Below the pieces are notes generated by a model. It did not search any database. It saw only the letters and a program-made list of their open reading frames with translations, and had not been told where the DNA came from. Shown here piece by piece: positions 1 to 36,291 of a DNA stretch of 40,625 nt (the stretch's first letter is position 1; every line of letters starts with the position of its first letter). Both the position numbers and the translations under genes were made by a program. Where the stretch lies: the IMG/VR virus record IMGVR_UViG_2541047915_000011; one strand, 5' to 3'. Source of the stretch: a virus. Its lineage: Duplodnaviria > Heunggongvirae > Uroviricota > Caudoviricetes.

Positions 1-2148
1 TTACACCATACTGTTAACCTGGCCGGGTAATTCGCTAGCTGGAATACGAAAGGTATACCAGGCATAACGACAGCGTTTCCACAGGCTGGAGAAATGGAGA
101 TGATAAAGGCAATCTGCAATAATTTCGTTATCTGGATATAAAGACTCGGCAAAATGTGTCCAGCGCGCACTGAGTTTCATGTTAAACAGTTTTTCATCTT
201 CTTTGTTACCATACAGGCGCGACAAAGTAATCATTGCTTCGAGCGTACCTTTATTCGCTTCTTCTTGTACCTGTTGGAGGTGCAAATGAGCAAGTGAGAG
301 TTCTTTCACCTCAAAGATATTAAGTAAAAAAAGCCCCCATGCTTTTTCATGTCCAGCTTCATGAGCCAGAAATAAATTGTCAAGGAGATTTTTTTCATAA
401 ATAGCCCGTGTTTCTTTAGAAATTTCTTGTTTATTTAGTGCCTGGTAGCAGATAGCAATGCTAAAATAAATATTTTGTAGATCTTGTTGATGTTCGCTAT
501 AACCATAATTTTTTACCAGTGGATAAGATACCGAGCTATGGAAATTTAGGTCATCTTGAAGTATTTTAAGTGCCCGTCGAAAATACTCCAAAGCTGTAGA
601 TGGTTCATAAGGTAATTTTGTATTGTCTTCCTTATCCAAATATTCAAGAGCAACTAAATTTAATGCGGCAGGAATATTTCTTTGCTTACCAATTGTCGCA
701 AGCGGAATGAAATAATCAGAAAGGTCAAACCAACTCAAATCTTTTATTGCCGACCGCCAATTATGATTGTATTTAATGTCACTAGTTTTTTCCAGCCAAG
801 CATCGCCCTGCCCTTCATCTTTTTCAAAACCCAAAATACCCTCTCGCTGGAAAAACCCCCTATAAATAACAGGTGTAGCATAAGTTGTATTCTGTGAATT
901 TTGGCAGATAAAATTATATATCCAGAATGAATCTGGATAATAACTTAATGCAAATTTTATCGCGTACGCAGTGTAATAATTATTGAGCTTCATGTCTTCC
1001 ATCACCGCTCGCTGTATACAGCACCACAACTTATCGTGATCGTTCTGCTTGTTATAGCAGGCAAGTAACCACTCTAGGGCATTATGGCGACATTCCTGAA
1101 ATTGTGCGTACTGAGCAATATTCTCTGCTAAGTCGATTGCATATTGTTGCTCCTCGGGCGCAATGTCCTCAATGCTGACATCTCGGTAATCATCCCACCA
1201 AAGTAAGAGATCCATATAGTCATGTTCTTCGGTAGATAAGTGCTTACAGGTTACTGAATCCAGCAATTCGGAAATTTCTTTATGCGACCCTCCCCAGCGT
1301 GGCATTCGAAATGGTATATATTCAACAAAAGGATAAAAAGTGTGAGGAAAAATAGTCAGGCAAACAGAAAGCCAATATTTTTGCCCACCATCATCATCAT
1401 ACTCAGGAAGTATATTGGGGCGAGGCAAAACGGGGCATATTGCATGCTCAAACGAAAGTCCGGAATACGCCATCAACGCTTCCACTTCTTGCGGGGAGCG
1501 GCGGTGATAATTTTTCAGTGCGATCATTAATGGTATTCCTGCGACACTATCACCGTTAAGGTGTGCCGCCAGCCAGGCTGGCTGACCAAATACTTTTGAG
1601 TTGGTGCTGGTAAGTAATGCAGCCATCCATTGTCGTGGGTCACAATCAATTGCTTTAAGTGTAGCGATGACCATTTGTTCATTACATGCACCAGCACAAA
1701 GCCACATTGCATGTGTGGTATCATTTGCCCAGCCATAACTGCGATATAACCATGCACGGTGATTCCAGTATTGTGCTTCGGCAAGCCAGGCATGTGTAGA
1801 ATGAGGTCTTGCTTGCTGCCAGGTTTTAATGAGTCTTAAACCTTCTGTTCCGGCATCAACTAGCGTGTTCATATCATAAAAATAGTTGCACATTTGGGTC
1901 CAGGATAAAAAATAGCGCTTTTCAGCCTGACGAGAAGTGAAACTCTCCTGTAATACCTGGTTATAAATTTCATCTAGTTCCTGATAACGTTTTTCTTGTA
2001 ACATATAAGGAATATTTGCGATTTGCCATTTTCTCTCAAGAGTATTAAGTGGCATTTTTTGGTCACACATCTTTTGCATTGCACTGAGTAAACGAGCATC
2101 CTGTTCCATAGATATCCTTTTAATTAGGTTCAAAAATTTTAAATTCAT
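1..2148 (-). CDS. Hypothetical large protein (715 aa by longest ORF; an internal ATG at about 2109 with an AAGGA Shine-Dalgarno would give about 702 aa). Trp-rich N-terminal region, TPR/Sel1-like helical repeats in the C-terminal third. Distal gene of a 3-gene operon.
   Basis: Complete ORF with stop at 1-3. Overlaps or abuts the upstream 238-aa gene. AT-rich relative to yegQ. No family assigned from sequence alone. Confidence 0.6.
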   Translation of the reverse strand: MNLKFLNLIKRISMEQDARLLSAMQKMCDQKMPLNTLERKWQIANIPYMLQEKRYQELDEIYNQVLQESFTSRQAEKRYFLSWTQMCNYFYDMNTLVDAGTEGLRLIKTWQQARPHSTHAWLAEAQYWNHRAWLYRSYGWANDTTHAMWLCAGACNEQMVIATLKAIDCDPRQWMAALLTSTNSKVFGQPAWLAAHLNGDSVAGIPLMIALKNYHRRSPQEVEALMAYSGLSFEHAICPVLPRPNILPEYDDDGGQKYWLSVCLTIFPHTFYPFVEYIPFRMPRWGGSHKEISELLDSVTCKHLSTEEHDYMDLLLWWDDYRDVSIEDIAPEEQQYAIDLAENIAQYAQFQECRHNALEWLLACYNKQNDHDKLWCCIQRAVMEDMKLNNYYTAYAIKFALSYYPDSFWIYNFICQNSQNTTYATPVIYRGFFQREGILGFEKDEGQGDAWLEKTSDIKYNHNWRSAIKDLSWFDLSDYFIPLATIGKQRNIPAALNLVALEYLDKEDNTKLPYEPSTALEYFRRALKILQDDLNFHSSVSYPLVKNYGYSEHQQDLQNIYFSIAICYQALNKQEISKETRAIYEKNLLDNLFLAHEAGHEKAWGLFLLNIFEVKELSLAHLHLQQVQEEANKGTLEAMITLSRLYGNKEDEKLFNMKLSARWTHFAESLYPDNEIIADCLYHLHFSSLWKRCRYAWYTFRIPASELPGQVNSMV

Positions 2149-2836
2149 TCCACGGCAATTTTTTCCAGTTACTGGATGGATCTTTCAACCATGCAGTGAC
2201 TTCCTTTAAATCACGGTTCGCAGTGGCGACGGGGGTATCGTATATCATTAACCATTTTTGTCGGGCGCGAACATAAGCACTGGCATAATCTTCCCATGAA
2301 GCGAAACAATCTTGTGCTCTTTGAGCATTCAGTAATAACACTATCCAGGCCTGGTTTTCATCGCACCAGCCTAAACCGGCGATGCAACGAGTTAAAAAAG
2401 CAGTGCGCATACAGTCAAACGCCAGCCCATCCAGAACCTGGCCTTGTGCTGCCAGTTGTTCGTAAAAATCATGTGGAGAATTACCAAGCCCTGTAGCCCA
2501 GCGCTGTAATATAACGCCAATTTGTTGACGGAAATCTTCGTTGCTTTGGTAAGTTTCTGTTCCTAGCTCTTGTTTAACCTGTAGTGCAAGTTGTTGACGC
2601 TTATCATCAGTCAACTTTAAATCTAACGTGAAGCCATTTACTGACAGTCCATTACGACGAGCAACTATATCACCAATTGCTAATGCCCACTTACGTCTCT
2701 TTGTTGCTCGTCTTTTGTCCTTGATTAGATCCTTTTCTTTTTCTTTAGCAATAAAAGCATCGATTTGTGGTTTGTTTTTTTTGTATCTATAGATAAAAAT
2801 AAATATTGCGACCAGGAGAACAATGATAAGACTCAT
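2120..2836 (-). CDS. Hypothetical protein, 238 aa, with N-terminal hydrophobic signal-anchor/TM segment (LIIVLLVAIFIFIY) followed by a basic stretch
   Basis: ORF track. Start overlaps the stop of the upstream 404-aa gene (TAATG-type overlap at 2834-2838), suggesting translational coupling. Confidence 0.6.
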   Translation of the reverse strand: MSLIIVLLVAIFIFIYRYKKNKPQIDAFIAKEKEKDLIKDKRRATKRRKWALAIGDIVARRNGLSVNGFTLDLKLTDDKRQQLALQVKQELGTETYQSNEDFRQQIGVILQRWATGLGNSPHDFYEQLAAQGQVLDGLAFDCMRTAFLTRCIAGLGWCDENQAWIVLLLNAQRAQDCFASWEDYASAYVRARQKWLMIYDTPVATANRDLKEVTAWLKDPSSNWKKLPWNEFKIFEPN

Positions 2837-4050
2837 TATTTTTCAACCTCTGACAGGGGTAAGTAATGAGATGTCTGTAATGTCAAACTCTCTATCTCAA
2901 AGGAAATGTTGCTGATATTTTGACCTGCAAATTGCGGATGCCACTCAGCGCCAGGGAATAACATTTCCGCAGAAGTAGCAACTATAGGGTCAATAGCATT
3001 AAGATAATGTAACTTATCAGGTGCGCTGTGTAACAGTAACCACTGCAACTCCACTGAAGGATTTGTAAAATGTTCTAATAAATGAAAGTTATTATGTAGT
3101 ACGCTTAGTAAAAAACTGGTTTCGTATACTTCCGTTGCATATTTCCACCCCTGATATTCAGGTGTATTTTCATAAACAATACCCATACCTTCACAATCAC
3201 TATGTCGAACTGCTTGTGGTGATAATAGTTGCAAAAGAGACAAAACATCGTCCGCATATTTTTTAACTGGATGACGATTTTGCTTACCTTTTATTTGATC
3301 AATTTCAAGTGAATCACCAACAACATTGAGAGCAATAGTAACATGAGGAATATTATTATTATCACGCAAACTGAATAACCGTAATTTATGTTGCTCAATT
3401 TGATTTGCATAATACTCACCATAACCACCGGTAAGATTTTTTCGATCATCAAACTGGCCTACGCAATGTTGCATATGCCATGATTCATAAGCCATTTCAC
3501 GACGAAGGTTCGAATGACTGGCATCAAACTCAACAATTTTTCCGTCTGGCACATCAAGTATTGACTTTACAGTATTTTGTTCACTCGGCTGCCACCCTTT
3601 CTCGCGTCGTTGAAGCATCTTTTCATGCTCTTCTTCACGCATTCTGAACGCAACGTAGCAGGTTATGCGCTGTAGTTTTGATTCCAGACGGGTACCACAT
3701 TTCCTGGAAAGAAATTCCACCAACTCCCGTTCTTTGGTTAATATTTGTTGATGATCGGTTTCGATATAATAAAGTGTCGCAGTTGATACTGAGGCAGTAT
3801 TAAACTTCGATACCAGCCATTCCGGGATTACATCATCATTTTTATTAAACAGTGAATATTCTGCAAGCGAGTTAATTTGTTGCACCATTGGAAAGTCACT
3901 AATTAGCCATCGATAAAAATGGTTGAGTAACCATTTTTGGATGGTCTCATTATCCTGGCGAAACAGACTTCTTTGCAAAATTGCTGTTTTTACTTCCGGG
4001 GCATTAATTACATCCCTTGCATTATAATTCTGGTGAATATTTCCAGTCAT
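2836..4050 (-). CDS. Hypothetical protein, 404 aa, first gene of the 3-gene operon
   Basis: ORF track. Preceded by a 487-bp AT-rich intergenic region (4051-4537). Contains an HCVGQF...GGYGEYY segment. No confident family call. Confidence 0.6.
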   Translation of the reverse strand: MTGNIHQNYNARDVINAPEVKTAILQRSLFRQDNETIQKWLLNHFYRWLISDFPMVQQINSLAEYSLFNKNDDVIPEWLVSKFNTASVSTATLYYIETDHQQILTKERELVEFLSRKCGTRLESKLQRITCYVAFRMREEEHEKMLQRREKGWQPSEQNTVKSILDVPDGKIVEFDASHSNLRREMAYESWHMQHCVGQFDDRKNLTGGYGEYYANQIEQHKLRLFSLRDNNNIPHVTIALNVVGDSLEIDQIKGKQNRHPVKKYADDVLSLLQLLSPQAVRHSDCEGMGIVYENTPEYQGWKYATEVYETSFLLSVLHNNFHLLEHFTNPSVELQWLLLHSAPDKLHYLNAIDPIVATSAEMLFPGAEWHPQFAGQNISNISFEIESLTLQTSHYLPLSEVEK

Positions 4051-5939: not shown

Positions 5940-5983
5940 ACCGATCACATACAGCTGCATTTATTAAGGTTATCATCCGTTTC
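5940..5983 (+). promoter_or_regulatory. Putative cyaR promoter region (CRP-dependent in E. coli)
   Basis: TATCAT -10-like hexamer at about 5971-5976, about 7 nt before the sRNA 5' end, and a TCACA half-site upstream. CyaR is known to be CRP-activated. Position inferred, not verified. Confidence 0.3.
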
Positions 5984-6070
5984 GCTGAAAAACATAACCC
6001 ATAAAATGCTAGCTGTACCAGGAACCACCTCCTTAGCCTGTGTAATCTCCCTTACACGGGCTTATTTTTT
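5984..6070 (+). ncRNA. cyaR: CyaR (RyeE) Hfq-dependent small RNA
   Basis: Sequence GCTGAAAAACATAACCC...ACCTCCTTAGCC...CCCTTACACGGGCTTATTTTTT matches my recollection of E. coli CyaR, including the CCUCCU seed and an intrinsic terminator. Lies between yegQ and ogr as in E. coli K-12. Confidence 0.7.
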
Positions 6071-13103: not shown

Positions 13104-13697
13104 TCAATTATGTAAATCTTTTGTTTTATGTTCTTTGGCGTGTTGTGACAACAAATGGCTATAGCGTTTAAGCAAAATATTAGAAAGATTAAGCTCATTC
13201 ATGAAGTGTTCTTCTAATAAGTAACCATCAATATCAACTTTAATATCATTACCACTTTTCATCTTCTGTAACGTAGATTTTACACGCTCCAGCAGGATGC
13301 TTTGCTCATGGTAATAGTCCATAAGAAGAGTAACATCCTCTTTATCAAGCTTACTTAATTCGCTGAAGTAGGATTTAAACACTTTATCAGTCTGGTTTAA
13401 TGCAATCTGTAAGCGAGGCCCCCCTAATGATTTGACATTAATGGCAAAAGGCTCGCCAACAAAATGCTCCGAATTTTCGTCAAAGCCAATATATCTCGTT
13501 TTATCAAGAAAAGTGAGAGCGCGATGGTTATTAGCGATTTCATATGCAAACATTGTTCTGATACTGTCCCTCTCAGCCTCCATGCTTATATCATCACGAT
13601 GATTTGTATAAAATATATTTCCAACAAAGAGAACCATAGCAAGAATCACTGAACTTGCCTCCCAGTTAATATTTTTTAATCGTCGCTTAGTAAACAT
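13104..13697 (-). CDS. Z/fun-locus protein, 197 aa, N-terminal signal-anchor/TM helix, function unknown
   Basis: AT-rich ORF in the variable slot between G and FI. AAGGTG Shine-Dalgarno about 5 nt before the ATG. Hydrophobic segment SSVILAMVLFVGNIFY near the N-terminus. Confidence 0.7.
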   Translation of the reverse strand: MFTKRRLKNINWEASSVILAMVLFVGNIFYTNHRDDISMEAERDSIRTMFAYEIANNHRALTFLDKTRYIGFDENSEHFVGEPFAINVKSLGGPRLQIALNQTDKVFKSYFSELSKLDKEDVTLLMDYYHEQSILLERVKSTLQKMKSGNDIKVDIDGYLLEEHFMNELNLSNILLKRYSHLLSQHAKEHKTKDLHN

Positions 13698-13918: not shown

Positions 13919-14446
13919 TTATTGCGGCATTTCCGGCCATTCAGGATTTGCAGGATCCACACGACTGACCAGAACGCTGTAACGCTCCCATGCATCCAGT
14001 CGGCTACGCTCCTCATCTGTTGCCATGTTCAGTCTGACCGCGCGCTCCAGCGGCAAAATCACGGATTCAGCATCTGCAAGAAGTCTGGCTTTCCGGTTTT
14101 CTGCCTGCTGCAGCAATTCCTCTGCCGTATAAATGCGTTTAATCACTTTGCCGTCCTTAAACATCCAGCCCCCTGAAATGTCCGCCCGTCGGTTAGCAGT
14201 AATATCCGCCACTTCAACAACACTTAATCCATCCGGTCTGATAGCTGTCACATCCTTTTCCACATAGCGGATAATATTATCTTTGTCGTACGCTATTTTT
14301 ATCGTGTCATCAGCAAAATACTTTTGTTCTTCGTACCAGTTCTTACCATCTTCTGAAAAAAACCAGACAACATCAAAACCCTTTGTCAATTGATATTGTT
14401 CAACCGTTTTTGGATTACCCGCCGTAATATTTTTTAAATGCTGCAT
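13919..14446 (-). CDS. G: Tail fibre assembly protein gpG
   Basis: 175 aa, immediately downstream of H as in P2. Confidence 0.85.
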
Positions 14447-14449
14447 AAA

Positions 14450-17209
14450 TTATACCTGCGCCACGTTATACCATGTCCCGTTAATGTATTTCTGAACCGG
14501 CCTGTAATATACACCACCAATGTTATCGGCAGAGTTTGAGCCGGTATCCTGAACAATAATGCCGGAATATACACACCCGGACGGTGCCTGATGTGTCCAT
14601 GTCATGCCATTGTTCGCAGGTTTGTATGTGGCAGCACCACCAAGCCGGATATCCCGGACATAGCGGGAATCAAAGTTACCGTAATCCGAGGGATTAACAC
14701 GCCCCGTAATATTTATGGTTTTATTACTTTGAATACTTCCCGAGACAAAGCGCATAATATGGACGCTATTAGCATAAACATCCAGATTACCATCACCATT
14801 TTGTTTAAAGCCCGTGTCATTATCACCCAAAACAATCGAATTACCGCCAAGAGCACTGGATGTTCCTATACCCAGAGCACCATTCAATTGACCACCAGAT
14901 AACGGCAGTGCACCGACATCTCCCGCTGTAGGTTTTCGCGTTGTGGTATAAAACTCAGACCAGTCAGCCTCGAATCCGTAACCGTCACGAGCAGAACGAT
15001 AAAAAATACCGCCGTTCTTATAATTAACGCGGAACTGGGCGGCGGGACAACTTCCTTCACCGATATTAAAATGAAGAATTAACGTTGATGCCCCACCAGT
15101 AGTTGCGTTATAGGCTCCGCTACTCCAGTTCCACCCAACGGCTTTATCATTCGCAACGGTGTCTCCTGTTTTTCCTGAAGCAAATGCACCAATATTTTTC
15201 GGCGTCAAGTTAATATCTGATGTTCCATCAAACGAAACGTTATTAATTTTACGGGCTGTTTTCAGCTTTGTTGCTGTCGCCGCATTGCCGGACAGTTCAC
15301 CAGAAAGGCCAGCACTGAATGTCTGTTTCGCGCCCCATGTCTGGGCTTCGTCAATGATTGGTACTCGTCTTGCTGTGATCGTGCGGCTTCCCGGATTTCC
15401 TGAAATACGCACCATAAAAAAGCGGTAGTTCGCTTTACTTACAGTGCTGCGCCATACATGCATTGAGCGCCCCGTACCGGAATCATCACTCGGACCAACT
15501 ACGATGTTTATCAGGTTGCCATCAATGACGCCCCAGTCCATACCGTCGGGAATGTTGGTCATGTTATCAAGCCGCACGGTTATCAGACTGCCCGGCACAA
15601 AATCGTAGGTCTGCCAGTCCAGACTGGATAGTTTTGCCACTGCGCCACCGATGCCCAGATTCAGAGGCAACGAAAAGGAGTTATATACTTCTCGCCATTC
15701 GGTCCATTTGCTCCCGGCGTAGACGCGCTCAAAAGTGCGTCCCTGTGTGGTTTCTGATTTCCCTGTGGTTGTGTAACGCTGCCAGACAGACACACCATCA
15801 AAACGTCTGATTACTTCCAGTATCCCAAGTAGTGTCGCGCCAACGGTGTCCAGCATCGGACCGTTTGTTGCCTTTCCTGTAACACTGTAAATACCGGGGT
15901 CGGTTAGAACATTTAAATCACCTTCGTAATAACGACTCTCTGACTGATGACCGACTCTTAACCACGGTTCCCACTGCGGATTTGATGCATCCCAGCTTGC
16001 CGCAAGACAGCGGACATACATATTTCCACGGCGAGTGGTATAACGTTGCGTTCTTCCATAATTTCCGCCTTCGAGGATCTCAAGCATCCCCTGAGCAAAG
16101 CCGCCTTCCTCTGGATAATTGCGTTCATATGAAGCTATAGCTGAGCTACTGTTACGCCATAAACCAAGATGCTCGGCGGCTCCAAGCGTATTCAGGTCTA
16201 TAGTCGTACTCAAAGGGCGGGTAGCAGATTGAGTGTGACGCCATACGCCCCACGGACCATCAGTGCCATTCCACTTATTGGCGAGTTTACGCATGTATAC
16301 ATTGCCGTCTCTCGTGGTAAAGCGTTGCGTACCTGCAAAATTGCCGGCAGCAAAAACCTCAAGCACACCGACAGCATTATCTTCCGGGAAATTTTTCTCC
16401 AGTGTTGCGTTGGTGGATGTTGCTTTAGACCAGATACCTGAATAAGCCTTAACAGGACCAAACGTATTCAGATCAGCATCAAGCGGCATTTCGCCATTGT
16501 TTTTCATAAACGTCAGGCTGGTAACGCCAACATTGTCCAGAAAAGCTGATTTATCCTGGATATCTGCACCGTTCTGATTTTTCGCCAGACGTGAATTTGC
16601 GTTGTCATTCGCAGCCTTGACCGCTTTTGGCGTTGCCGCCAGCTTTTCACTGGTGCTGTTTGTTGCACTGCTTAACTGAGTAAAACCTTTTTCTGTCAGC
16701 GTGGCGTCAGGATGGCGGCGGGACTGCTCATGCTCTGCGATTTTGTCATCGACGTAATCCTGCGTCGCCATCACTGTGCTGGCATCAATACTCAGCTCAA
16801 CGGACGCCACGTTGCTGAGAATAATAACCATGCGGCAGGTCTGCGCACGTCCGGAGCCTTCAGCCAGTTCTGGCTTATAGCTTTCTGCCATGTTGGATAC
16901 CGCAATCAGTGTTCCGGCATCGTCATACAGACCAAGCTCACGCATCCAGAAGCCGCCCACTTCTGGCGGAACAACCAGTTCAGCCACAATATAGTTTTTA
17001 TTCTTATTATCCACACTGACTTTATTCAGAGCGTGACGCCAGACCTCATGCACCAGTTTCGTCTGACCGGCATCCGGCACCGGTAATTTGCCATTACCGT
17101 CACCCACGGCCATTGCAGACAGGTTTACTTTTTTCCCGCCGGGGACAGTGGCGGCAGCCAGCTTTGCGGCTCCGGCAGTAGTGATAACGGTTTTAAATTT
17201 CGTGCTCAT
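14450..17209 (-). CDS. H: Tail fibre protein gpH (919 aa, longer than the 669 aa I recall for P2 H)
   Basis: N-terminus MSTKFKTVITTAGAAKLAAATV... is P2 H-like. Central region carries three tandem repeats of about 85 aa, each with a conserved QR(F/Y)TT core. C-terminal part has the tail-fibre motif SGNAATATKL. Confidence 0.9.
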   Translation of the reverse strand: MSTKFKTVITTAGAAKLAAATVPGGKKVNLSAMAVGDGNGKLPVPDAGQTKLVHEVWRHALNKVSVDNKNKNYIVAELVVPPEVGGFWMRELGLYDDAGTLIAVSNMAESYKPELAEGSGRAQTCRMVIILSNVASVELSIDASTVMATQDYVDDKIAEHEQSRRHPDATLTEKGFTQLSSATNSTSEKLAATPKAVKAANDNANSRLAKNQNGADIQDKSAFLDNVGVTSLTFMKNNGEMPLDADLNTFGPVKAYSGIWSKATSTNATLEKNFPEDNAVGVLEVFAAGNFAGTQRFTTRDGNVYMRKLANKWNGTDGPWGVWRHTQSATRPLSTTIDLNTLGAAEHLGLWRNSSSAIASYERNYPEEGGFAQGMLEILEGGNYGRTQRYTTRRGNMYVRCLAASWDASNPQWEPWLRVGHQSESRYYEGDLNVLTDPGIYSVTGKATNGPMLDTVGATLLGILEVIRRFDGVSVWQRYTTTGKSETTQGRTFERVYAGSKWTEWREVYNSFSLPLNLGIGGAVAKLSSLDWQTYDFVPGSLITVRLDNMTNIPDGMDWGVIDGNLINIVVGPSDDSGTGRSMHVWRSTVSKANYRFFMVRISGNPGSRTITARRVPIIDEAQTWGAKQTFSAGLSGELSGNAATATKLKTARKINNVSFDGTSDINLTPKNIGAFASGKTGDTVANDKAVGWNWSSGAYNATTGGASTLILHFNIGEGSCPAAQFRVNYKNGGIFYRSARDGYGFEADWSEFYTTTRKPTAGDVGALPLSGGQLNGALGIGTSSALGGNSIVLGDNDTGFKQNGDGNLDVYANSVHIMRFVSGSIQSNKTINITGRVNPSDYGNFDSRYVRDIRLGGAATYKPANNGMTWTHQAPSGCVYSGIIVQDTGSNSADNIGGVYYRPVQKYINGTWYNVAQV

Positions 17210-19718: not shown

Positions 19719-20504
19719 ATGTTCAGTGATAATGTGACTAATGCGTGGTGGTTTATCTCTTTGTATCTATTTTTATTAATAGCATTAACATTTATTACCT
19801 TTGGTAAAAGTAATCTTATGAGGTTTATTGCACATCATTTCAATTTTGAGTATTCAGACAGAAAGTTAAAAATGCTCGACAAAAAATGGCGCGACATTCA
19901 ACTATTTAAAATAATTAACGGAATCAATGTATCAGGCATCGAAGATGTGAGAATGATACAGCAGGGGCTGATTGATGGAAAACTAAAAACATCGTATTTT
20001 TTTCTTACTCGCTTCTGGGGTGACATAACAAAACCACCACACATAATTAAAACAATAATTGTAATTCTGTCCAGCATTATTTATATTCTCTTCGCATGTT
20101 ATATACACAACAAACAATCCGCTATAGTAAGAGATGCCATAGGCATACCATATAAAAATATGATGTACTATGTTTATAGTGACAAAGTTCTTTTATCCTT
20201 CAACAATAAAACAGTTGAATTCAATAAAACTTATAGCCATGCCGATTGCAAGAGGCTACGAAACGTATTTATAAAAGACACACTTCCTGAGATCGCCTGC
20301 AATAAGCTCTTACAGCTAAACGAGGAGGACTCGGAATGGTTAAGTCAGGAGATTAAAGATAATAACAGCCAAAAAAAAGCATTATTAATAATATCCCTCA
20401 TCTATTTCATTTCAGGTCTGGTTATATTCCTGTCATATACAAAATTCCTTTACGCCAATAAGAAGGTTGTAGAATACAAAGCATCAAATAAAAATCACTC
20501 ATAA
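19719..20504 (+). CDS. orf30-locus polytopic membrane protein, 261 aa, function unknown
   Basis: AT-rich ORF on the opposite strand between V and S, the slot of P2 orf30. GAGGAG Shine-Dalgarno at about 19707-19712. At least three hydrophobic TM-like segments (N-terminal, central, C-terminal). Confidence 0.7.
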   Translation: MFSDNVTNAWWFISLYLFLLIALTFITFGKSNLMRFIAHHFNFEYSDRKLKMLDKKWRDIQLFKIINGINVSGIEDVRMIQQGLIDGKLKTSYFFLTRFWGDITKPPHIIKTIIVILSSIIYILFACYIHNKQSAIVRDAIGIPYKNMMYYVYSDKVLLSFNNKTVEFNKTYSHADCKRLRNVFIKDTLPEIACNKLLQLNEEDSEWLSQEIKDNNSQKKALLIISLIYFISGLVIFLSYTKFLYANKKVVEYKASNKNHS

Positions 20505-29867: not shown

Positions 29868-30485
29868 TTAACTCTCAACCTCAATAAAAATATTTTTGGG
29901 CCCATTACTAATCGATATACCGATTTCATCCAAAACAGCCATCATTTTTCTCTGATGAGTTTTATATTTATAGTCTTTATTTTCCTCTGTAATATGTGCA
30001 TTGGCTTCCTCAATAACACATTTGATTCTAGATATTATTTCTAGATAATCTCTCGAAACAGATATATCACCGCCTTGCGCTTCAGGGAACATAACCCTAT
30101 ACCATCTAAAAAAATTAACTTTCTCTGGATAGATGCTACTTCTTTTAGTTAACTCAGCACTTGCAAATTCTCTAAACATCGTCAGATGACTAGTGTAATT
30201 ACTATTATTATTATTTTTAACTCCAGCGTTATATGTCATCAAAGCAATCATAACACCAAAAACGGTAACAAAAGTTGTTATAAGCCATCCAAACGCCTGA
30301 AAATACATTACTATACCAGATGTTTTTTCCGCAAAAAATTTTAAGCACTGGCTATCGAAGCATATATCACGCTCATATAGCTTTTCATTCTGAATAGTTT
30401 CAAAAAGAGAAATTAGCGAAAAAATCAAAAAAAGAGCTGACGACACACCGACAATATATTTGAGAAGTCTAATATTTGCATTCAT
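29868..30485 (-). CDS. Small 2-TM membrane protein (205 aa), candidate effector partner of the adjacent reverse transcriptase
   Basis: ATG at 30483-30485 overlaps the RT stop (ATGA overlap). Hydrophobic helices at about residues 10-28 and 58-84. Strongly AT-rich. Confidence 0.7.
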   Translation of the reverse strand: MNANIRLLKYIVGVSSALFLIFSLISLFETIQNEKLYERDICFDSQCLKFFAEKTSGIVMYFQAFGWLITTFVTVFGVMIALMTYNAGVKNNNNSNYTSHLTMFREFASAELTKRSSIYPEKVNFFRWYRVMFPEAQGGDISVSRDYLEIISRIKCVIEEANAHITEENKDYKYKTHQRKMMAVLDEIGISISNGPKNIFIEVES

Positions 30486-31672
30486 AATGGTTTTAAAGAT
30501 GCCAATCTAGATTTAAAACACTCCAGTTTTTCTTTAAATGATTCAGAGCGAGTAAGAATAATCATCTTATATCTCGTCAAATCATATTTTCTTTTATACC
30601 AATGTTTATTTTGATTACCTTTCGAATACGACAACTCTAAACTTTTTATAGCTGCATCAATCACAGCAACATCTCTTTTAGATGGCATCGGTTTTATTGC
30701 CTGCAACTGTTTCTTGAATGATTCATATTTTTCATGCCCAACACGGCCAAGCTTATTCACTCTCCCCATACATCTATTGAATTCTTTTCTGTATGCAACA
30801 CTTGTTTTTGTGTTATTTTTTGCCGCCAGTAATTTCAAATTATGTATAGATGCCCTGATTCTTTTGACTTCATCGGATGGTAGTCGAGGTGAGTCATAGT
30901 CAACTCTTAAACCATGTACTTTTATAGGTTCAGATGAACAGTGAAATATTTTAGTTTTGTGCTTATTTATCGGCAAGTCATGCTCAGAAAGCATCCTCTC
31001 TATATGGCTTTGCATTTGAGAAAAATCATAATTACTTATTTTAGATGACACGGTAATATCATCTACCAAACGCGTATAAACAAGTCCTTTCCTCTGCGCA
31101 CGTCTTACCACATCCCCTTCAACAGCGAATAAACACAAAGTTGCTATATAGCTTGATGTTAAGGCCCCCTGTACGACAAAATCATCCTTAGTACATATAT
31201 CCACCAAGTATTCAAGAGCCTCATCCTTAATATGCAATATCTCCTCAAACACGCTCCTAACCAGATCTCTATGGATATTATCGAAAAAATTACTTATATC
31301 CACCTTGAGAACTGTTTTTGCTCCACAATGAGCCTTTGCACATGAAACATAGTCACGTTTGACATTAGAATTTAACACATCATTTTTACTGGGAACTGAA
31401 CCAAACAAAAATGAAGGAAAAACAACCAATTCCTTAAAGATACGTTTATTAATTCTACTCTGTAATAATCTCATTTTAGGATGCAGGGAGTAGACAATCC
31501 GTTTGCTTCCGTCAATTTTGGGAATTTCTTTTAGAGTATATTTCTCATCTAATGGTAATTCTGCAATAGCTTTAAGCTCTTCAACAGAAATCGATAAAGC
31601 CTTTGACAACTTTTCAAGTGTTGTGATAGGAGCATTGGATTTGCTGTATGGTTTAAATTTATCCATAAACAT
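30482..31672 (-). CDS. Reverse transcriptase, retron-like (UG/Abi-type not excluded). About 396 aa from the ATG at 31672; the ORF track extends to a TTG at 31756.
   Basis: RT motifs in order: IPKIDGSKRIV, CAKAH, VLKVDISNFFDNI, QGALTSSYIATL, LVYTRLVDDITV (catalytic DD), INKHKTKIF, IKVHGLRV, then a basic C-terminal domain of about 135 aa. Start is ambiguous; the upstream extension overlaps a structured inverted-repeat region. Confidence 0.8.
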   Translation of the reverse strand: MFMDKFKPYSKSNAPITTLEKLSKALSISVEELKAIAELPLDEKYTLKEIPKIDGSKRIVYSLHPKMRLLQSRINKRIFKELVVFPSFLFGSVPSKNDVLNSNVKRDYVSCAKAHCGAKTVLKVDISNFFDNIHRDLVRSVFEEILHIKDEALEYLVDICTKDDFVVQGALTSSYIATLCLFAVEGDVVRRAQRKGLVYTRLVDDITVSSKISNYDFSQMQSHIERMLSEHDLPINKHKTKIFHCSSEPIKVHGLRVDYDSPRLPSDEVKRIRASIHNLKLLAAKNNTKTSVAYRKEFNRCMGRVNKLGRVGHEKYESFKKQLQAIKPMPSKRDVAVIDAAIKSLELSYSKGNQNKHWYKRKYDLTRYKMIILTRSESFKEKLECFKSRLASLKPL

Positions 31673-31689
31673 ACCATTCAAATTCAAAG

Positions 31690-31820
31690 TTACGTACGGT
31701 CTTCCCATACTCAAGGGTGGAACAGCAGAGATGCTTACATCAACAATTGTCAGCAACAGCCTCTGCTATCTTTCGACCGTACGTAATGTCGTCGGCTACG
31801 GCACCATCGTAGTTGACGAC
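31690..31820 (-). repeat. Nested inverted repeats and hairpins in the RT leader (candidate structured RNA element)
   Basis: 12-bp perfect inverted repeat TTACGTACGGTC (31690-31701 and 31775-31786) enclosing a 7-bp inner repeat AGCAGAG/CTCTGCT. Adjacent hairpin at 31788-31820 with 13-bp imperfect stem GTCGTCGGCTACG / CGTAGTTGACGAC. Confidence 0.5.
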
Positions 31821-31997
31821 GGTGGGGCCTCGCTGATAGGTCCATAGTGGACGCTTTTTTGTAAAAGCAAAAACTGACAATTTAATGTTGTTGACTGCCG
31901 CATACCAAGCGAATCGCTGGTGCGCTAAGAATAATGCAACAAAAAAATAAGAATTTCAACCGGGTAACTGCAAGCCAGCGACATCGTTTAGCGCGCA

Positions 31998-32016
31998 GTG
32001 CTTTCCCCGCCTCGCC
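31998..32016. other. cos cohesive-end sequence (P2 type)
   Basis: Minus strand reads GGCGAGGCGGGGAAAGCAC, matching the 19-nt P2 cohesive end as I recall it. Lies between the RT and gene A. Confidence 0.7.
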
Positions 32017-32588
32017 CGCCCGCTTCATGTGGCGGTTTTAATGCAGTTGCATAGATACTATGGATCCGCACCAGCTCTGACCGCAAGCAGCTGGAACGGG
32101 CATCCCCGACGCATGCAAAAACATTCACTTGTTGCATGCACGGCTTATTTAATGACAAATCAACTTAAGCGTCACCGAAGCTCCCACAAAAAAAACGTAA
32201 CGCCATGATTTTAGTGATATTTATGACTTTTTTAATTGCTTATTTAAGTCCGCCATATTGAAACCGTGCATTTTTTAGCCACCAATAACTTTAAAAAATT
32301 TACATTGCTTTCAATACCTTATCATCCGTAGTCCCTGCTTTTTACTTTGAGCTATATCAAAAAAAGCTCAAACATCCTTGATGCAAAACCAGTATTACAC
32401 AACATAAAATGCAACCAGAAACAACGACATACTATATGTTGTGTTGTTCAGGCTCTCTGTTCGGTGATATGCCAGATCACTTTGCGTTTAAACAGAGCAT
32501 TATTTCAGGGCAAGACTTCGCTAAATAGTAACTCCGCCTTAGAAGCGCATATATCGGCGGAAATTGCCCTCTGCTTACAGGAGGAGAT

Positions 32589-32699
32589 ATGAAGAAGTGC
32601 TATTACTGCATTCTCGTTCTGGCCCTCTTTGGCTATCCATATGGTAGTCCAAGTGGTTTGTCAGTAAACGTCAGTAATATCCATGTAAGTATTATTCTT
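32589..32699 (+). CDS. Possible small hydrophobic protein (36 aa, MKKCYYCILVLALFGYPYGSPSGLSVNVSNIHVSIIL)
   Basis: AGGAGG Shine-Dalgarno at 32579-32584, ATG at 32589, stop TAG directly before the bidirectional terminator. Below the ORF-track size cut-off. Expression unverified. Confidence 0.3.
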
Positions 32700-32713
32700 T
32701 AGTATGCTTCAAA

Positions 32714-32745
32714 CAAAAAAACCACCTGCCAGGGTGGTTTTTTTG
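32714..32745. terminator. Bidirectional intrinsic terminator (ends the A operon on the minus strand and the small ORF on the plus strand)
   Basis: A7 tract, AACCACC / GGTGGTT stem with TGCCAG loop, then T7 tract. Confidence 0.6.
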
Positions 32746-33004
32746 CGCCTGTCATCATTCCGATGAAAGACTAGCAAGACTTCGCTCGAGATGAATTATG
32801 CTTCGACAAAAGGTCACTCGCAATGGTTTTATTAGCCGAAATAGATGCTCTTTTATGACTCGAATCAAATAGCTGCCTTAAATTACATGCTAGCGATTCA
32901 ATACAATTTAGCCTTCTACTTCAGCATGCTATTGCTCCTCATCTGCCTTAGAGGCGCTTCGCATAATCCATTCAAAGGCATATAAAATCACGCTGCATTT
33001 TTAC

Positions 33005-35287
33005 TCAAATGGGTAACAAAAATCCAGGCCACTCATCAGCGACCTGATAATTGAAAGATTTCCCGTAATAATTTACGGTCGCGCCACGCGCCAGCGCCTC
33101 AAGCTCCCATCGCTGCGGCCTGATACCGTTCTGAGCAAGGTCAACGCGGATACGGGTAATTTGCATTCTTTCCGACCGGGTCAGTCTGGCCGATGGTGCA
33201 ATTTCATGTGGTTTTAACGGGCTTCCGTTTCTTTGCTGACGATTTGGTGTTCTCAGGTCGTGTTTTAATGCCCCCCTGAGCGCCCTCACGACCTCCGTGT
33301 CATTCCATTCGATAACACCGTCATCAACCAGATTAAGCACTGCTGCGGCGTGTTCAGAAGGTGTGGGAGCCGGTAACGAAGTATCACCACCGGTGAGCTT
33401 TCCACAGTTATTGACAGGACTCCGAGGCGCGGCGATGCCGCTTTTTAAAGTCAAAGGCTCAACGACCGGAACTTTCGGCACAATGCGCCAGTCCGTCGTT
33501 CTGGTGATATGAATATGACGCGCGCCGAGATGCGGCGCGTAAATGCCGACCACTCTCTCGACTTCTTCCTCGTACTCGTTAACGTCATCCGACGGGCTAC
33601 GGGCGACCCTGACAGTCTGACAATCGCGCGGGACATTTGCCCCGCCCTGCGCGCTGATATACAACGCAAAATCACCACTGTCTGCAGCGGCGCGTGCAGC
33701 CTCGACGCGCTCGTCAAACTCATCAGCAATGCTGACGCCGCGAGGCAATTTGCGTAGTTCACGGTAAGCCCCCATTGTCGGCAGACCAACCGTTTTAAAT
33801 TGCGGAATGCGCCACGTTGACGCCCATGCGGTAACAGCCGCTGCAGTATCTTTCAGCGGCCTGCCGGTATCGTTATCGAGCTGACCATCCAGTGCATAGC
33901 CGTCGATGTTTTTTGAAATGTATTTCGCGATATACCCCGCAGCACCGCCCCGGTTAAGATGTTTTGCCTGAAAACGGTTTCGCGCAGCTCCTCTTTCGTC
34001 GCCATCCTCTTTGAGCGCGTAGCGACGCATGATTTCAATAATCTGGTTACGCTGGCGTGGATTACAAAAAAGCATCATATGCCAGTGCGGCGTTCCGTCG
34101 TGGTGTGGCTCGACGACTCGCAAACCGTAGACCTGTAAATCATTATCCTTGAATGCCGTGCGCATCAGGCTCCAGATACGGCAGAGATATCGCTGCGCAT
34201 CCTTTGGATTAAATGCCTCATCATTCCAGCCGTGATTAAGCTGGACGGTTTTACTTTCGCCTTTTCCGACCTGACGTGTCGGGTGATACTTTGACGGCGC
34301 GGTCAGCGTGATAAACATCCCCACATCGCCCTCTGCGGCGGCGTAACGCTCAATACCGGCAATGGTGTTCATCAGCTCCATCCGGCGAATTTCAGGATTA
34401 GAAATACTGCCCATAACCTTACTGATAAGGTCGATGCGCTCGCCGGTTTCCCTGTTTTCAAGGTCACACGATTTAAGAAATTCCAGATTTGCCTGGCGGC
34501 GCGCACGCACATCACGAATGGCATGTTTACTGGCATAAGGAGAACGGTCTTTATTCACCTCCCCGACAGCAATCAGTAACGCCTCATGCCAGCGCATACG
34601 CTGGCCTTTAAGCTGACTAATCCACCACTCATCGTTAAACAGGCGGGCAATGGCAGAATATGCCTGCCTCGTGGTCATCTGTCCTTTACGGTATTTTTTC
34701 CAGAAAAGCGGGGAAATATTGAAAGCACGTGCAGCGCCAGCAACATGACCATACAGATGCGCCTGCGCCTCATCTGTAAACAGCGATTCTTTCTCGCCAT
34801 GTGCATCAACCCAGGCATCGCAGAGTTCCTCATACATCATGAAAAGCTGCGATGAAATACGGGCGGCAAACTTTTTCAGCTCCTTGTCATTCATCCCCGG
34901 CAGACGCGCATAATGGTCACGCTCTGCCAGAAACAGCAACGACGCGTCGGTGTTCATTTCATGGCGCTGATTCACGCGCTCAATACGCGGCCATAAACGG
35001 CGCTGAAAAGTGGATGTGAGGAAATAAAACCCGTGTAGCGGGCTTTTATTGCGCCGTATGTAGTCATAACGTGAAGTAAACAGCGAGCGCAAAAAGTAAG
35101 GCAGGCGGTTAATCGTGGATAAAACACCTTGCACCTGACGCATCTCGTCACGTGTAAGGGGTCTTTCGCGCCCGACAGCCTCGCGTGGCGTATTCCATGC
35201 ATAAGCACCGGTAAACGCCTTACCGGTGCCTGCGGCAAACGCAGACGGAGGTACGCAGGTGTATTGCTCCTGGAAAGAATGACTCAT
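33005..35287 (-). CDS. A: Replication initiation protein gpA (rolling-circle initiator)
   Basis: 760 aa, P2 A size and position. Start overlaps the stop of the upstream PP-loop gene. Confidence 0.9.
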   Translation of the reverse strand: MSHSFQEQYTCVPPSAFAAGTGKAFTGAYAWNTPREAVGRERPLTRDEMRQVQGVLSTINRLPYFLRSLFTSRYDYIRRNKSPLHGFYFLTSTFQRRLWPRIERVNQRHEMNTDASLLFLAERDHYARLPGMNDKELKKFAARISSQLFMMYEELCDAWVDAHGEKESLFTDEAQAHLYGHVAGAARAFNISPLFWKKYRKGQMTTRQAYSAIARLFNDEWWISQLKGQRMRWHEALLIAVGEVNKDRSPYASKHAIRDVRARRQANLEFLKSCDLENRETGERIDLISKVMGSISNPEIRRMELMNTIAGIERYAAAEGDVGMFITLTAPSKYHPTRQVGKGESKTVQLNHGWNDEAFNPKDAQRYLCRIWSLMRTAFKDNDLQVYGLRVVEPHHDGTPHWHMMLFCNPRQRNQIIEIMRRYALKEDGDERGAARNRFQAKHLNRGGAAGYIAKYISKNIDGYALDGQLDNDTGRPLKDTAAAVTAWASTWRIPQFKTVGLPTMGAYRELRKLPRGVSIADEFDERVEAARAAADSGDFALYISAQGGANVPRDCQTVRVARSPSDDVNEYEEEVERVVGIYAPHLGARHIHITRTTDWRIVPKVPVVEPLTLKSGIAAPRSPVNNCGKLTGGDTSLPAPTPSEHAAAVLNLVDDGVIEWNDTEVVRALRGALKHDLRTPNRQQRNGSPLKPHEIAPSARLTRSERMQITRIRVDLAQNGIRPQRWELEALARGATVNYYGKSFNYQVADEWPGFLLPI

Positions 35288-36291
35288 TCACATACACCGG
35301 CATAGACACTACTGCAAACGGCTTTATCATTCGCCGAAGCCAGTAAATCAAACTGAGTACCCCCACGCGTTGTCATTGTCCAGTCATGGTAGGTTTCAAT
35401 TCCGTATGCCTCGACTGTTACAACCTCAATACGACGTTCTGCGCGTAACGGATCATGTGTGGATGGGAAAAAAGTGGAATTTCCCCGACGGGAGCACGAC
35501 GCAACCAGTCGTTCCCATTCAGCAACCCGCTTTATTTCCTCCGGCCACCGGCGAAAAATTTCTGCCAGTTCAGATTTACGGACATGAATACATGGCATAC
35601 AACCAACACGGCCACACCCCTGCTGATATAACGGATTTGGCTTAATGTCATGTCTTCTGGCTATTGCAAATACATCTTCATGCTTCCAGTGCAAAATCGG
35701 GCGATATACATGCAATCCGGGGGTGTTGTCTGCATCCTCTTCCCAGACAGGTAAAGCTGCGCGTGATGGCGATTCCTGAGCACGCACTCCCTGCCAGCTA
35801 ATCACTTCCTCAAATTCATTGAGTAAAGGCAGGATTACCTGAGAACGCACGGGTTCATGTTTCAGTTCAAATGTGCAAAATCTGGCTTTGGTTGATGGGA
35901 AACGCCCCTTCCACAGACACAAATCAAGAAACGGGATACCCGTTGGTTTGAGAATTTCCAGCGCACAACTGATGCGCTGGTGCGCTTCTTCTTCCGACAT
36001 TCCACAATCGTTAACCAACAAATCAGGCCATTTGGTCTGGATAAACTTGCGCTTTGATTCAATCCGGCAGGAAAAATCAGCCCTGACCCTTTTAATTGGG
36101 CCAAGCCGTTTTTCCAGATAATCCAGATATTTCATTGTCTGTGGATGTTCATGTCCCGTATCAGCAAAAACCGGCAATATGGGTACATTTTCTTCAATAG
36201 CGACAAGCCACTGAGCAAGGCTGTCCTTTCCACCTGAAACAAAAATAACATTGATGGTATTTTCAGTATGGCAACGAGCATCAGTAATCAT
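35284..36291 (-). CDS. PAPS-reductase-like PP-loop ATP pyrophosphatase family protein (335 aa)
   Basis: PP-loop motif FVSGGKDS near the N-terminus and a C-terminal Cys cluster (CGRVGCMPC). 4-nt overlaps with orf83 upstream and A downstream. Confidence 0.75.
   Translation of the reverse strand: MITDARCHTENTINVIFVSGGKDSLAQWLVAIEENVPILPVFADTGHEHPQTMKYLDYLEKRLGPIKRVRADFSCRIESKRKFIQTKWPDLLVNDCGMSEEEAHQRISCALEILKPTGIPFLDLCLWKGRFPSTKARFCTFELKHEPVRSQVILPLLNEFEEVISWQGVRAQESPSRAALPVWEEDADNTPGLHVYRPILHWKHEDVFAIARRHDIKPNPLYQQGCGRVGCMPCIHVRKSELAEIFRRWPEEIKRVAEWERLVASCSRRGNSTFFPSTHDPLRAERRIEVVTVEAYGIETYHDWTMTTRGGTQFDLLASANDKAVCSSVYAGVCE

Follow-up and report, generated by a model that had tools for sequence, protein, structure and literature searches.

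The window analysed here, 40,625 nucleotides in full, is a P2-like prophage inside an E. coli chromosome. The genes around the tail fibre gene H follow the order V-W-J-I-H-G, as in P2, and the neighbours of H are recognised by Pfam as Tail_P2_I and Caudo_TAP. The H protein begins with MSTKFKTVITTAGAAKLAAA, a start that agrees with that of P2 H (ORF translation and BLASTP), and RefSeq holds an identical gene with the same ends under the name "phage tail-collar fiber domain-containing protein". The Pfam domain PF12571 at its N-terminus and its position between I and G identify the product as a P2-family gpH. Its length of 919 aa, against 669 aa for P2 H (NC_001895, 12734..14743), had been given correctly in the original prediction. 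The genes and the segments of H, with residue numbers of the H protein, are as follows.

14450..17209, minus strand: tail fibre gene H, an ORF of 919 aa, L-413C type
13919..14446, minus strand: gene G, tail fibre assembly chaperone (Pfam PF02413 Caudo_TAP, E=3e-34), directly downstream of H as in P2
16757..17209, minus strand: N-terminal tail-collar fibre domain, residues 1-151 (Pfam PF12571, E=3e-57; 82% identical to P2 H, 100% to L-413C H)
16577..16702, minus strand: single phage tail fibre repeat (Phage_fiber_2), residues 170-211 (Pfam PF03406, E=1e-20; also matches Mu S 110-176)
16223..16489, minus strand: knob repeat 1, residues 241-329 (repeat HMM, 110.8 bits)
15944..16213, minus strand: knob repeat 2, residues 333-422 (repeat HMM, 115.2 bits)
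15677..15934, minus strand: knob repeat 3, the divergent copy, residues 426-511 (repeat HMM, 82.9 bits)
15335..15673, minus strand: D4, a fourth beta-rich domain, residues 513-625 (six strands, pLDDT about 80-90 in a 400-aa model)
15197..15334, minus strand: linker with SGNAATATKL, residues 626-671 (100% identical to L-413C H, 68% to T6 gp37 63-103)
14903..15196, minus strand: segment matching Mu S/S' and gp37_C, residues 672-769 (PDB 8ju3, Pfam PF12604; 100% identical to L-413C H)
14453..14902, minus strand: C-terminal tip, residues 770-919 (39% identical to P2 H 477-669, 72% to L-413C H)

Residues 1-151 probably attach the fibre to the baseplate, and the tip is presumed to be the primary receptor-binding domain. 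In the distal half, residues 321-417 of the Mu S/S' chimera 8ju3 match H 672-768 (domain E=3.6e-48), and at the end of the tip there is a further match, to the C-terminus of Mu S (5yvq) and to that of a short tail fibre (9cuy). D4 is 96-98% conserved among E. coli homologues, and its AlphaFold prediction, confident within the 400-aa model, fell to a pLDDT of 38.5 when the domain was predicted alone. D4 was also considered as a fourth knob, but its sequence has no detectable relation to the knob profile (hhalign E=0.16-0.28).

Three tandem repeats of the pyocin knob type

The three tandem repeats predicted for the centre of H, at 15686..16483 (residues 243-508), are real and rightly placed, but their period is about 92 aa, not the roughly 85 aa first proposed. 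A repeat HMM built from an alignment of 24 repeat sequences finds exactly three domains in H, which together occupy 15677..16489. When H was split and its parts were compared by BLASTP, copy 1 (246-323) and copy 2 (338-416) were 42.5% identical over 80 aa (E=2e-23), and a comparison of profiles made from the homologues of each copy joined them at E=7e-30 (hhalign). Copy 3 had no significant BLASTP match to copies 1 or 2 (E about 0.1-1); in the same profile comparison it matched copy 1 over 70 columns at E=3e-7 and copy 2 at E=1.7e-5. Against an HMM of the copy 1 and copy 2 families only, copy 3 scored 13.3 bits, and the best of 2000 shuffles scored 10.5. The self-comparison suggested as a check of the prediction has thus revealed significant internal repeats, by split-protein BLASTP and by profiles; splitting was needed, since self-BLASTP of the unsplit protein returns the trivial self-hit only. 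Copy 3 is only marginally detectable without profiles. The 24-sequence alignment yields a common pattern, DLN..G.[WY]..N.P..G.LEV..QR[YF]TT..W..W, with four columns invariant across all three repeat families, and the core motif proposed originally, built around QR[FY]TT, lies inside this wider pattern and was found in 3/3 copies. The three-copy repeat goes far beyond chance.

These repeats are tandem pyocin-type knob domains. Among PDB sequences, the profile of the three repeat families matched the R1 pyocin fibre best (6cl5_A, positions 140-209, E=1.7e-6), with further matches to the R2 pyocin fibre 6cl6 (6.3e-5), 6ct8 (7e-4), the P68 tail fibre (9e-4) and a gp47 tail fibre (2e-3). With the residue numbers converted from the construct start at residue 323, the 6cl5 match covers about residues 457-526, inside Knob2 of the R1 pyocin fibre, which has been delimited as 445-528 (Buth et al. 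2018, PMC6116203); a second, weak match falls over Knob1 of the R1/R2 pyocin fibre. An AlphaFold model of H residues 236-635 (mean pLDDT 79.9) has 5-6 strands per repeat in the same order, and in this model and in Foldseek comparisons the repeats appear as antiparallel beta-sheets of five or six strands. The top Foldseek matches in the PDB were phi11 gp45 (5efv), the phi812 baseplate, the 80alpha RBP and 6cl5, each with a probability of 1.00, and phi11 gp45 has been counted as knob-like by Buth et al. (PMC6116203). The global TM-scores were low (0.19-0.30) because a single chain of a multi-domain trimeric fibre was compared, and the match to the knob fold therefore rests on local similarity together with the sequence profile. 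Many H homologues already bear the NCBI name "pyocin knob domain-containing protein". No model in Pfam or NCBIfam matched the H repeats, and PHROGs assigned H to generic tail-fibre families only.

The arrangement of the repeats is also that of the R1/R2 pyocin fibres (6cl5, 6cl6), in which tandem knobs in a contractile-tail fibre separate the attachment region from the distal binding domain; in H they occupy residues 241-511, between the N-terminal domain (1-151) and the tip (770-919). Nevertheless, the two kinds of fibre differ in several respects. H has three knobs, whereas the R1/R2 pyocin fibres have two; the knobs of H are followed by D4 and a distal part resembling Mu S and gp37, whereas those of the R-pyocins are followed by an iron-containing shaft and a lectin foot; and the sequence identity between the knobs is low, with hosts among enterobacteria on one side and Pseudomonas on the other.

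Mosaic composition of H and age of the triplication

The comparison with P2 H indicates that H is a P2-family fibre by its position and by both its ends and is not an orthologue of P2 H throughout. The operon position and the chaperone are common to both, but similarity does not run colinearly along the whole length: only residues 1-207 (83.6% identity) and 770-919 (39%) align by BLASTP, and no BLASTP match to P2 H was found for residues 208-769. P2 gpH, which is 250 aa shorter, lacks the knobs, D4, the SGNAATATKL linker and the segment matching Mu S'. The N-terminus is therefore P2-like, as had been predicted, through residues 1-207; the SGNAATATKL region, to which the same description had been applied, is not, since P2 H contains neither the motif nor its sub-strings. 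The possibility that P2 H itself might be of similar length and carry the same region, which would have spoken against the prediction, did not hold for this protein of 669 aa, in which the knob region is absent and the best repeat-HMM match scored -2.0 bits. The block of knobs and D4 takes the place of the alanine-rich central rod of P2 H.

Of the characterised fibres, that of Yersinia phage L-413C stands nearest, and H is a full member of its mosaic type, with pyocin-knob domains and an internal block shared with T-even gp37. L-413C gpH (913 aa, six residues shorter than H) has the same domain order and is 77% identical to H at 100% coverage, and nine of nine H segments align in order with it. 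Its knobs, at 241-328, 333-422 and 426-513, match the knob positions of H, and gpG is encoded downstream of its H gene, the operon position found here. In the account of Garcia et al. (2008) given in PMC7460101, L-413C gpH is itself a mosaic, with P2-like N-terminal 207 and C-terminal 137 residues around a foreign mosaic middle. The identity between the two proteins is distributed very unevenly. Residues 1-235 are 99-100% identical and residues 626-769 are 100% identical, whereas the values are 45% for knob 1, 71% for knob 2, 47% for knob 3, 72% for D4 and 72% for the tip; knob 1, knob 3 and the tip of H are thus alleles distinct from those of L-413C H.

The middle of H is in turn shared with gp37, the distal subunit of the long tail fibre in T6-type T-even phages. 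The block of three knobs and D4 is colinear with T6 gp37 115-506, in which knob 1 is 67% identical (115-209), knob 2 72.5% (210-300), knob 3 41% and D4 56% (394-506). In T6 gp37 the linker of the SGNAATATKL type precedes the knobs (63-103), whereas in H it follows them. The ends of gp37 in phages of the T4 type form the joint to gp36 and the tip region. These terminal regions are missing from H, in which H residues 1-235 and 672-919 gave no alignment with T6 gp37, so that only the internal block, and the linker, are common to the two proteins. Finally, Mu S/S' resembles H at residues 672-768 and at the C-terminus. The modular remodelling of the fibre that had been proposed is supported by this mosaic map and by the independent assortment of the knobs among E. 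coli homologues described below.

Two explanations of the repeats deserve to be weighed against a knob array of old descent. One is that copy 3, or the entire pattern, is a motif that matches by chance in a fibre protein rich in beta structure, and the BLASTP E-values of only 0.1-1 between copy 3 and copies 1 and 2 would fit such a match. However, this is very improbable, because profile comparison placed copy 3 at E=3e-7 and 1.7e-5, the shuffle test ranked it first of 2001, the predicted strand pattern is alike in all three copies, the four invariant columns run through all three repeat families, and copies 1 and 2 agree at E=2e-23. The other explanation accepts the repeats and attributes them to a recent tandem duplication in this prophage lineage, that is, to a local expansion of the fibre. 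The tandem arrangement of the copies speaks for it, as does the sole direct repeat recurring in the H DNA, a 17-nt remnant whose copies are spaced 276 nt apart. The copies are, however, only about 20-42% identical to one another, no extended DNA repeat accompanies them, and L-413C H and T6 gp37 contain these three copies too, in an unchanged order, with same-position copies closest; in T6, each H knob is nearer its same-position gp37 knob (41-72%) than its neighbours in H (about 20-42%). Since the DNA similarity amounts to the 17-nt remnant only, a recent duplication is rejected, and we regard it as even less probable than a chance match. Searched by tblastn, the whole 273-aa array was found in 223 phage records, mostly T-even gp37, the T-even share being about 190 records at an identity of about 58-60%. 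Thus, because same-position knobs are the closest, because the DNA retains a mere 17-nt remnant and because the array is widespread in T-even gp37, the sequences argue that the triplication of the knob is ancient, was inherited as a block and was not formed in this prophage. The block of knobs and D4 would have been passed on by recombination.

Prevalence of the fibre and possible roles of the knobs

The fibre had been presented as a feature of this prophage; in fact it is a widespread and already sequenced allele. Four complete E. coli genomes carry an H gene whose DNA is 100% identical to this one, and 169 of 5426 complete E. coli genomes contain homologues that extend over 80% or more of the gene. 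The same allele is carried by the Peduovirus phages PhiR44_1, P24E6b, D8 and 12W, with fibres 99.7-99.8% identical over all 919 aa, and the fibres of P2-like phages isolated on Y. pestis EV76 are 93-94% identical to H. A literature search returned no paper spelling out "three tandem knob domains in gpH". The findings on H are nevertheless already in the databases and largely in the literature, and they carry little weight as a discovery, as the allele has been sequenced, the L-413C mosaic has been on record since 2008 and the pyocin knob is a catalogued domain. A sharper annotation of H is possible, namely "L-413C-type tail fibre with three pyocin-knob domains".

The repeats, the identity of the domains, the mosaic map and the prevalence of the allele are direct results; the geometry of the trimer and any role in receptor binding are what we infer. 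In the solved R-pyocin fibres, the knobs of the three chains are arranged around the fibre axis, their sheets buried in the trimer interface, so that the shaft carries a globular bead (PMC6116203). By analogy with these structures and from what is known of P2, H would be a homotrimer whose knobs would each give rise, as in the R-pyocins, to a globular bead centred on the three-fold axis. The knobs would lengthen and segment the fibre and would serve as units of folding and trimerisation, and they probably present secondary surfaces of low affinity for saccharides, by which the fibre is oriented on the LPS. Primary contact with the LPS core would fall to the C-terminal tip, folded with the chaperone gpG.

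A binding role for the knobs would accord with the variation in H. Knobs 1 and 3 vary more than any other segment, with 45-47% identity to L-413C H against 99-100% in the flanks, and in E. coli homologues the three knobs are combined independently of one another, with D4 remaining at 96-98%; one homologue, for example, has knobs 1, 2 and 3 that are 44%, 77% and 99% identical to those of H, with D4 at 96%. The variability of the knobs could instead reflect relaxed constraint on surface loops.

The original prediction concluded from the remodelled fibre that the host range of the phage would differ from that of P2. A difference in host range is plausible, but the presence of additional knobs does not by itself lead to it. 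L-413C gpH binds Y. pestis cells (PMC7460101), and L-413C depends, as does P2 vir1, on the terminal GlcNAc in the outer core of Y. pestis LPS (PMC3182234). Because this requirement is common to a phage with knobs and to one without them, extra knobs alone do not imply a different receptor, and the shared LPS residue speaks for the tip rather than the knobs as the determinant of the primary receptor. The knobs might then be purely structural, acting as spacers and as nuclei of trimer folding that determine how long and how stiff the fibre is, without touching the cell surface, and with the host range set by the tip and the chaperone only. The use of the same critical GlcNAc by L-413C and P2 vir1 favours this explanation, a folding role for knob-like domains has been proposed by Buth et al. 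(PMC6116203), and it is the tip of H that shares homology with the tips by which P2 H and Mu S bind their receptors. On the other hand, the sequence diversity and the bound ligand mimics of the R-pyocins map to Knob2 as well as to the C-terminal domain, and not to the tip alone (PMC6116203), and the far greater variability of knobs 1 and 3 relative to their flanks, with their independent assortment, is typical of host-driven selection on surfaces. We consider a purely structural role possible, at a chance somewhat below even. It is also conceivable that the knobs, especially knobs 1 and 3, are exchangeable specificity cassettes that pass independently from one P2-like prophage or T-even phage to another; they would act as secondary LPS-binding sites and tune the host range apart from the tip. 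The uneven knob identities of the homologue cited above would fit such cassettes, which we put forward only tentatively, as a rather unlikely proposal.

Taken as a whole, we hold with high confidence that H is a P2-family tail fibre, presumably homotrimeric, of the L-413C mosaic type, in which three knobs and D4 form an ancient block whose roles may lie in spacing, in folding and in contact with LPS. Natural junctions for the engineering of P2, pyocin or T-even fibres can be read from the domain map and from the way in which the knobs assort independently, and the same junctions offer a simple test of the contribution of the knobs to host range.

Retron between Q and A

In the region between the portal gene Q and the replication gene A, where P2 carries the old/tin cargo, the prophage has an Ec48-type retron, as assigned by PADLOC and RefSeq naming, and a gap is observed beside its genes.

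29868..31756 (-), Ec48-type retron, reverse transcriptase and 2TM effector
31757..33004, ORF-free gap of ~1.2 kb

The reverse transcriptase was matched in PADLOC to RT_IV (E=8e-177) and the effector to 2TM_IV (E=2e-75), and the latter is named 'retron Ec48 family effector membrane protein' in RefSeq. No match to the msr/msd RNA was obtained in Rfam at the gathering threshold, so the ncRNA was not located.

Other ORFs among the P2-like genes

Three further ORFs were observed among the genes of P2-like order.

13104..13697 (-), 197-aa ORF between G and FI, annotated as hypothetical in RefSeq
19719..20504 (+), 261-aa ORF between S and V, on the opposite strand
35284..36291 (-), 335-aa protein with a PAPS-reductase domain, taken from the annotation

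The ORF between the tail fibre assembly chaperone gene G and FI, at the site occupied by fun(Z) in P2, is AT-rich (35-37% GC versus 50-60% in its neighbours); it had no match in Pfam or PADLOC and is a candidate for a role as cargo or in defence. The ORF between S and V, where P2 has orf30, shows a GC content of ~33% and an apparently hydrophobic product, as judged by eye, and PADLOC gave no match. The PAPS-reductase-domain gene lies directly downstream of the replication endonuclease gene A, which it overlaps, and it is not known from P2 itself.

Prophage edge

5982..6067 (+), CyaR/RyeE sRNA (Rfam RF00112, 100.7 bits)
1..4050 (-), three host-side genes adjoining the prophage, encoding DUF4034, DUF1266 and PcfJ-domain proteins

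The sRNA is flanked by trhP on one side and by the ogr-bearing prophage end on the other, and the region between trhP and ogr looks like the prophage-chromosome junction.

Knob domains of the tail fibre

E. coli homologues of the tail fibre H were aligned over residues 241-625 (alignment A1), covering its three tandem pyocin knob domains and the fourth beta-rich domain, D4. Identity to H across knobs 1, 2 and 3 was 44, 77 and 99% in homologue P0024, and 94, 100 and 76% in P0003, while D4 remained steady at 96-98%. These sequence comparisons indicate that the knob variants recombine independently, which represents domain-level shuffling inside a single fibre family.
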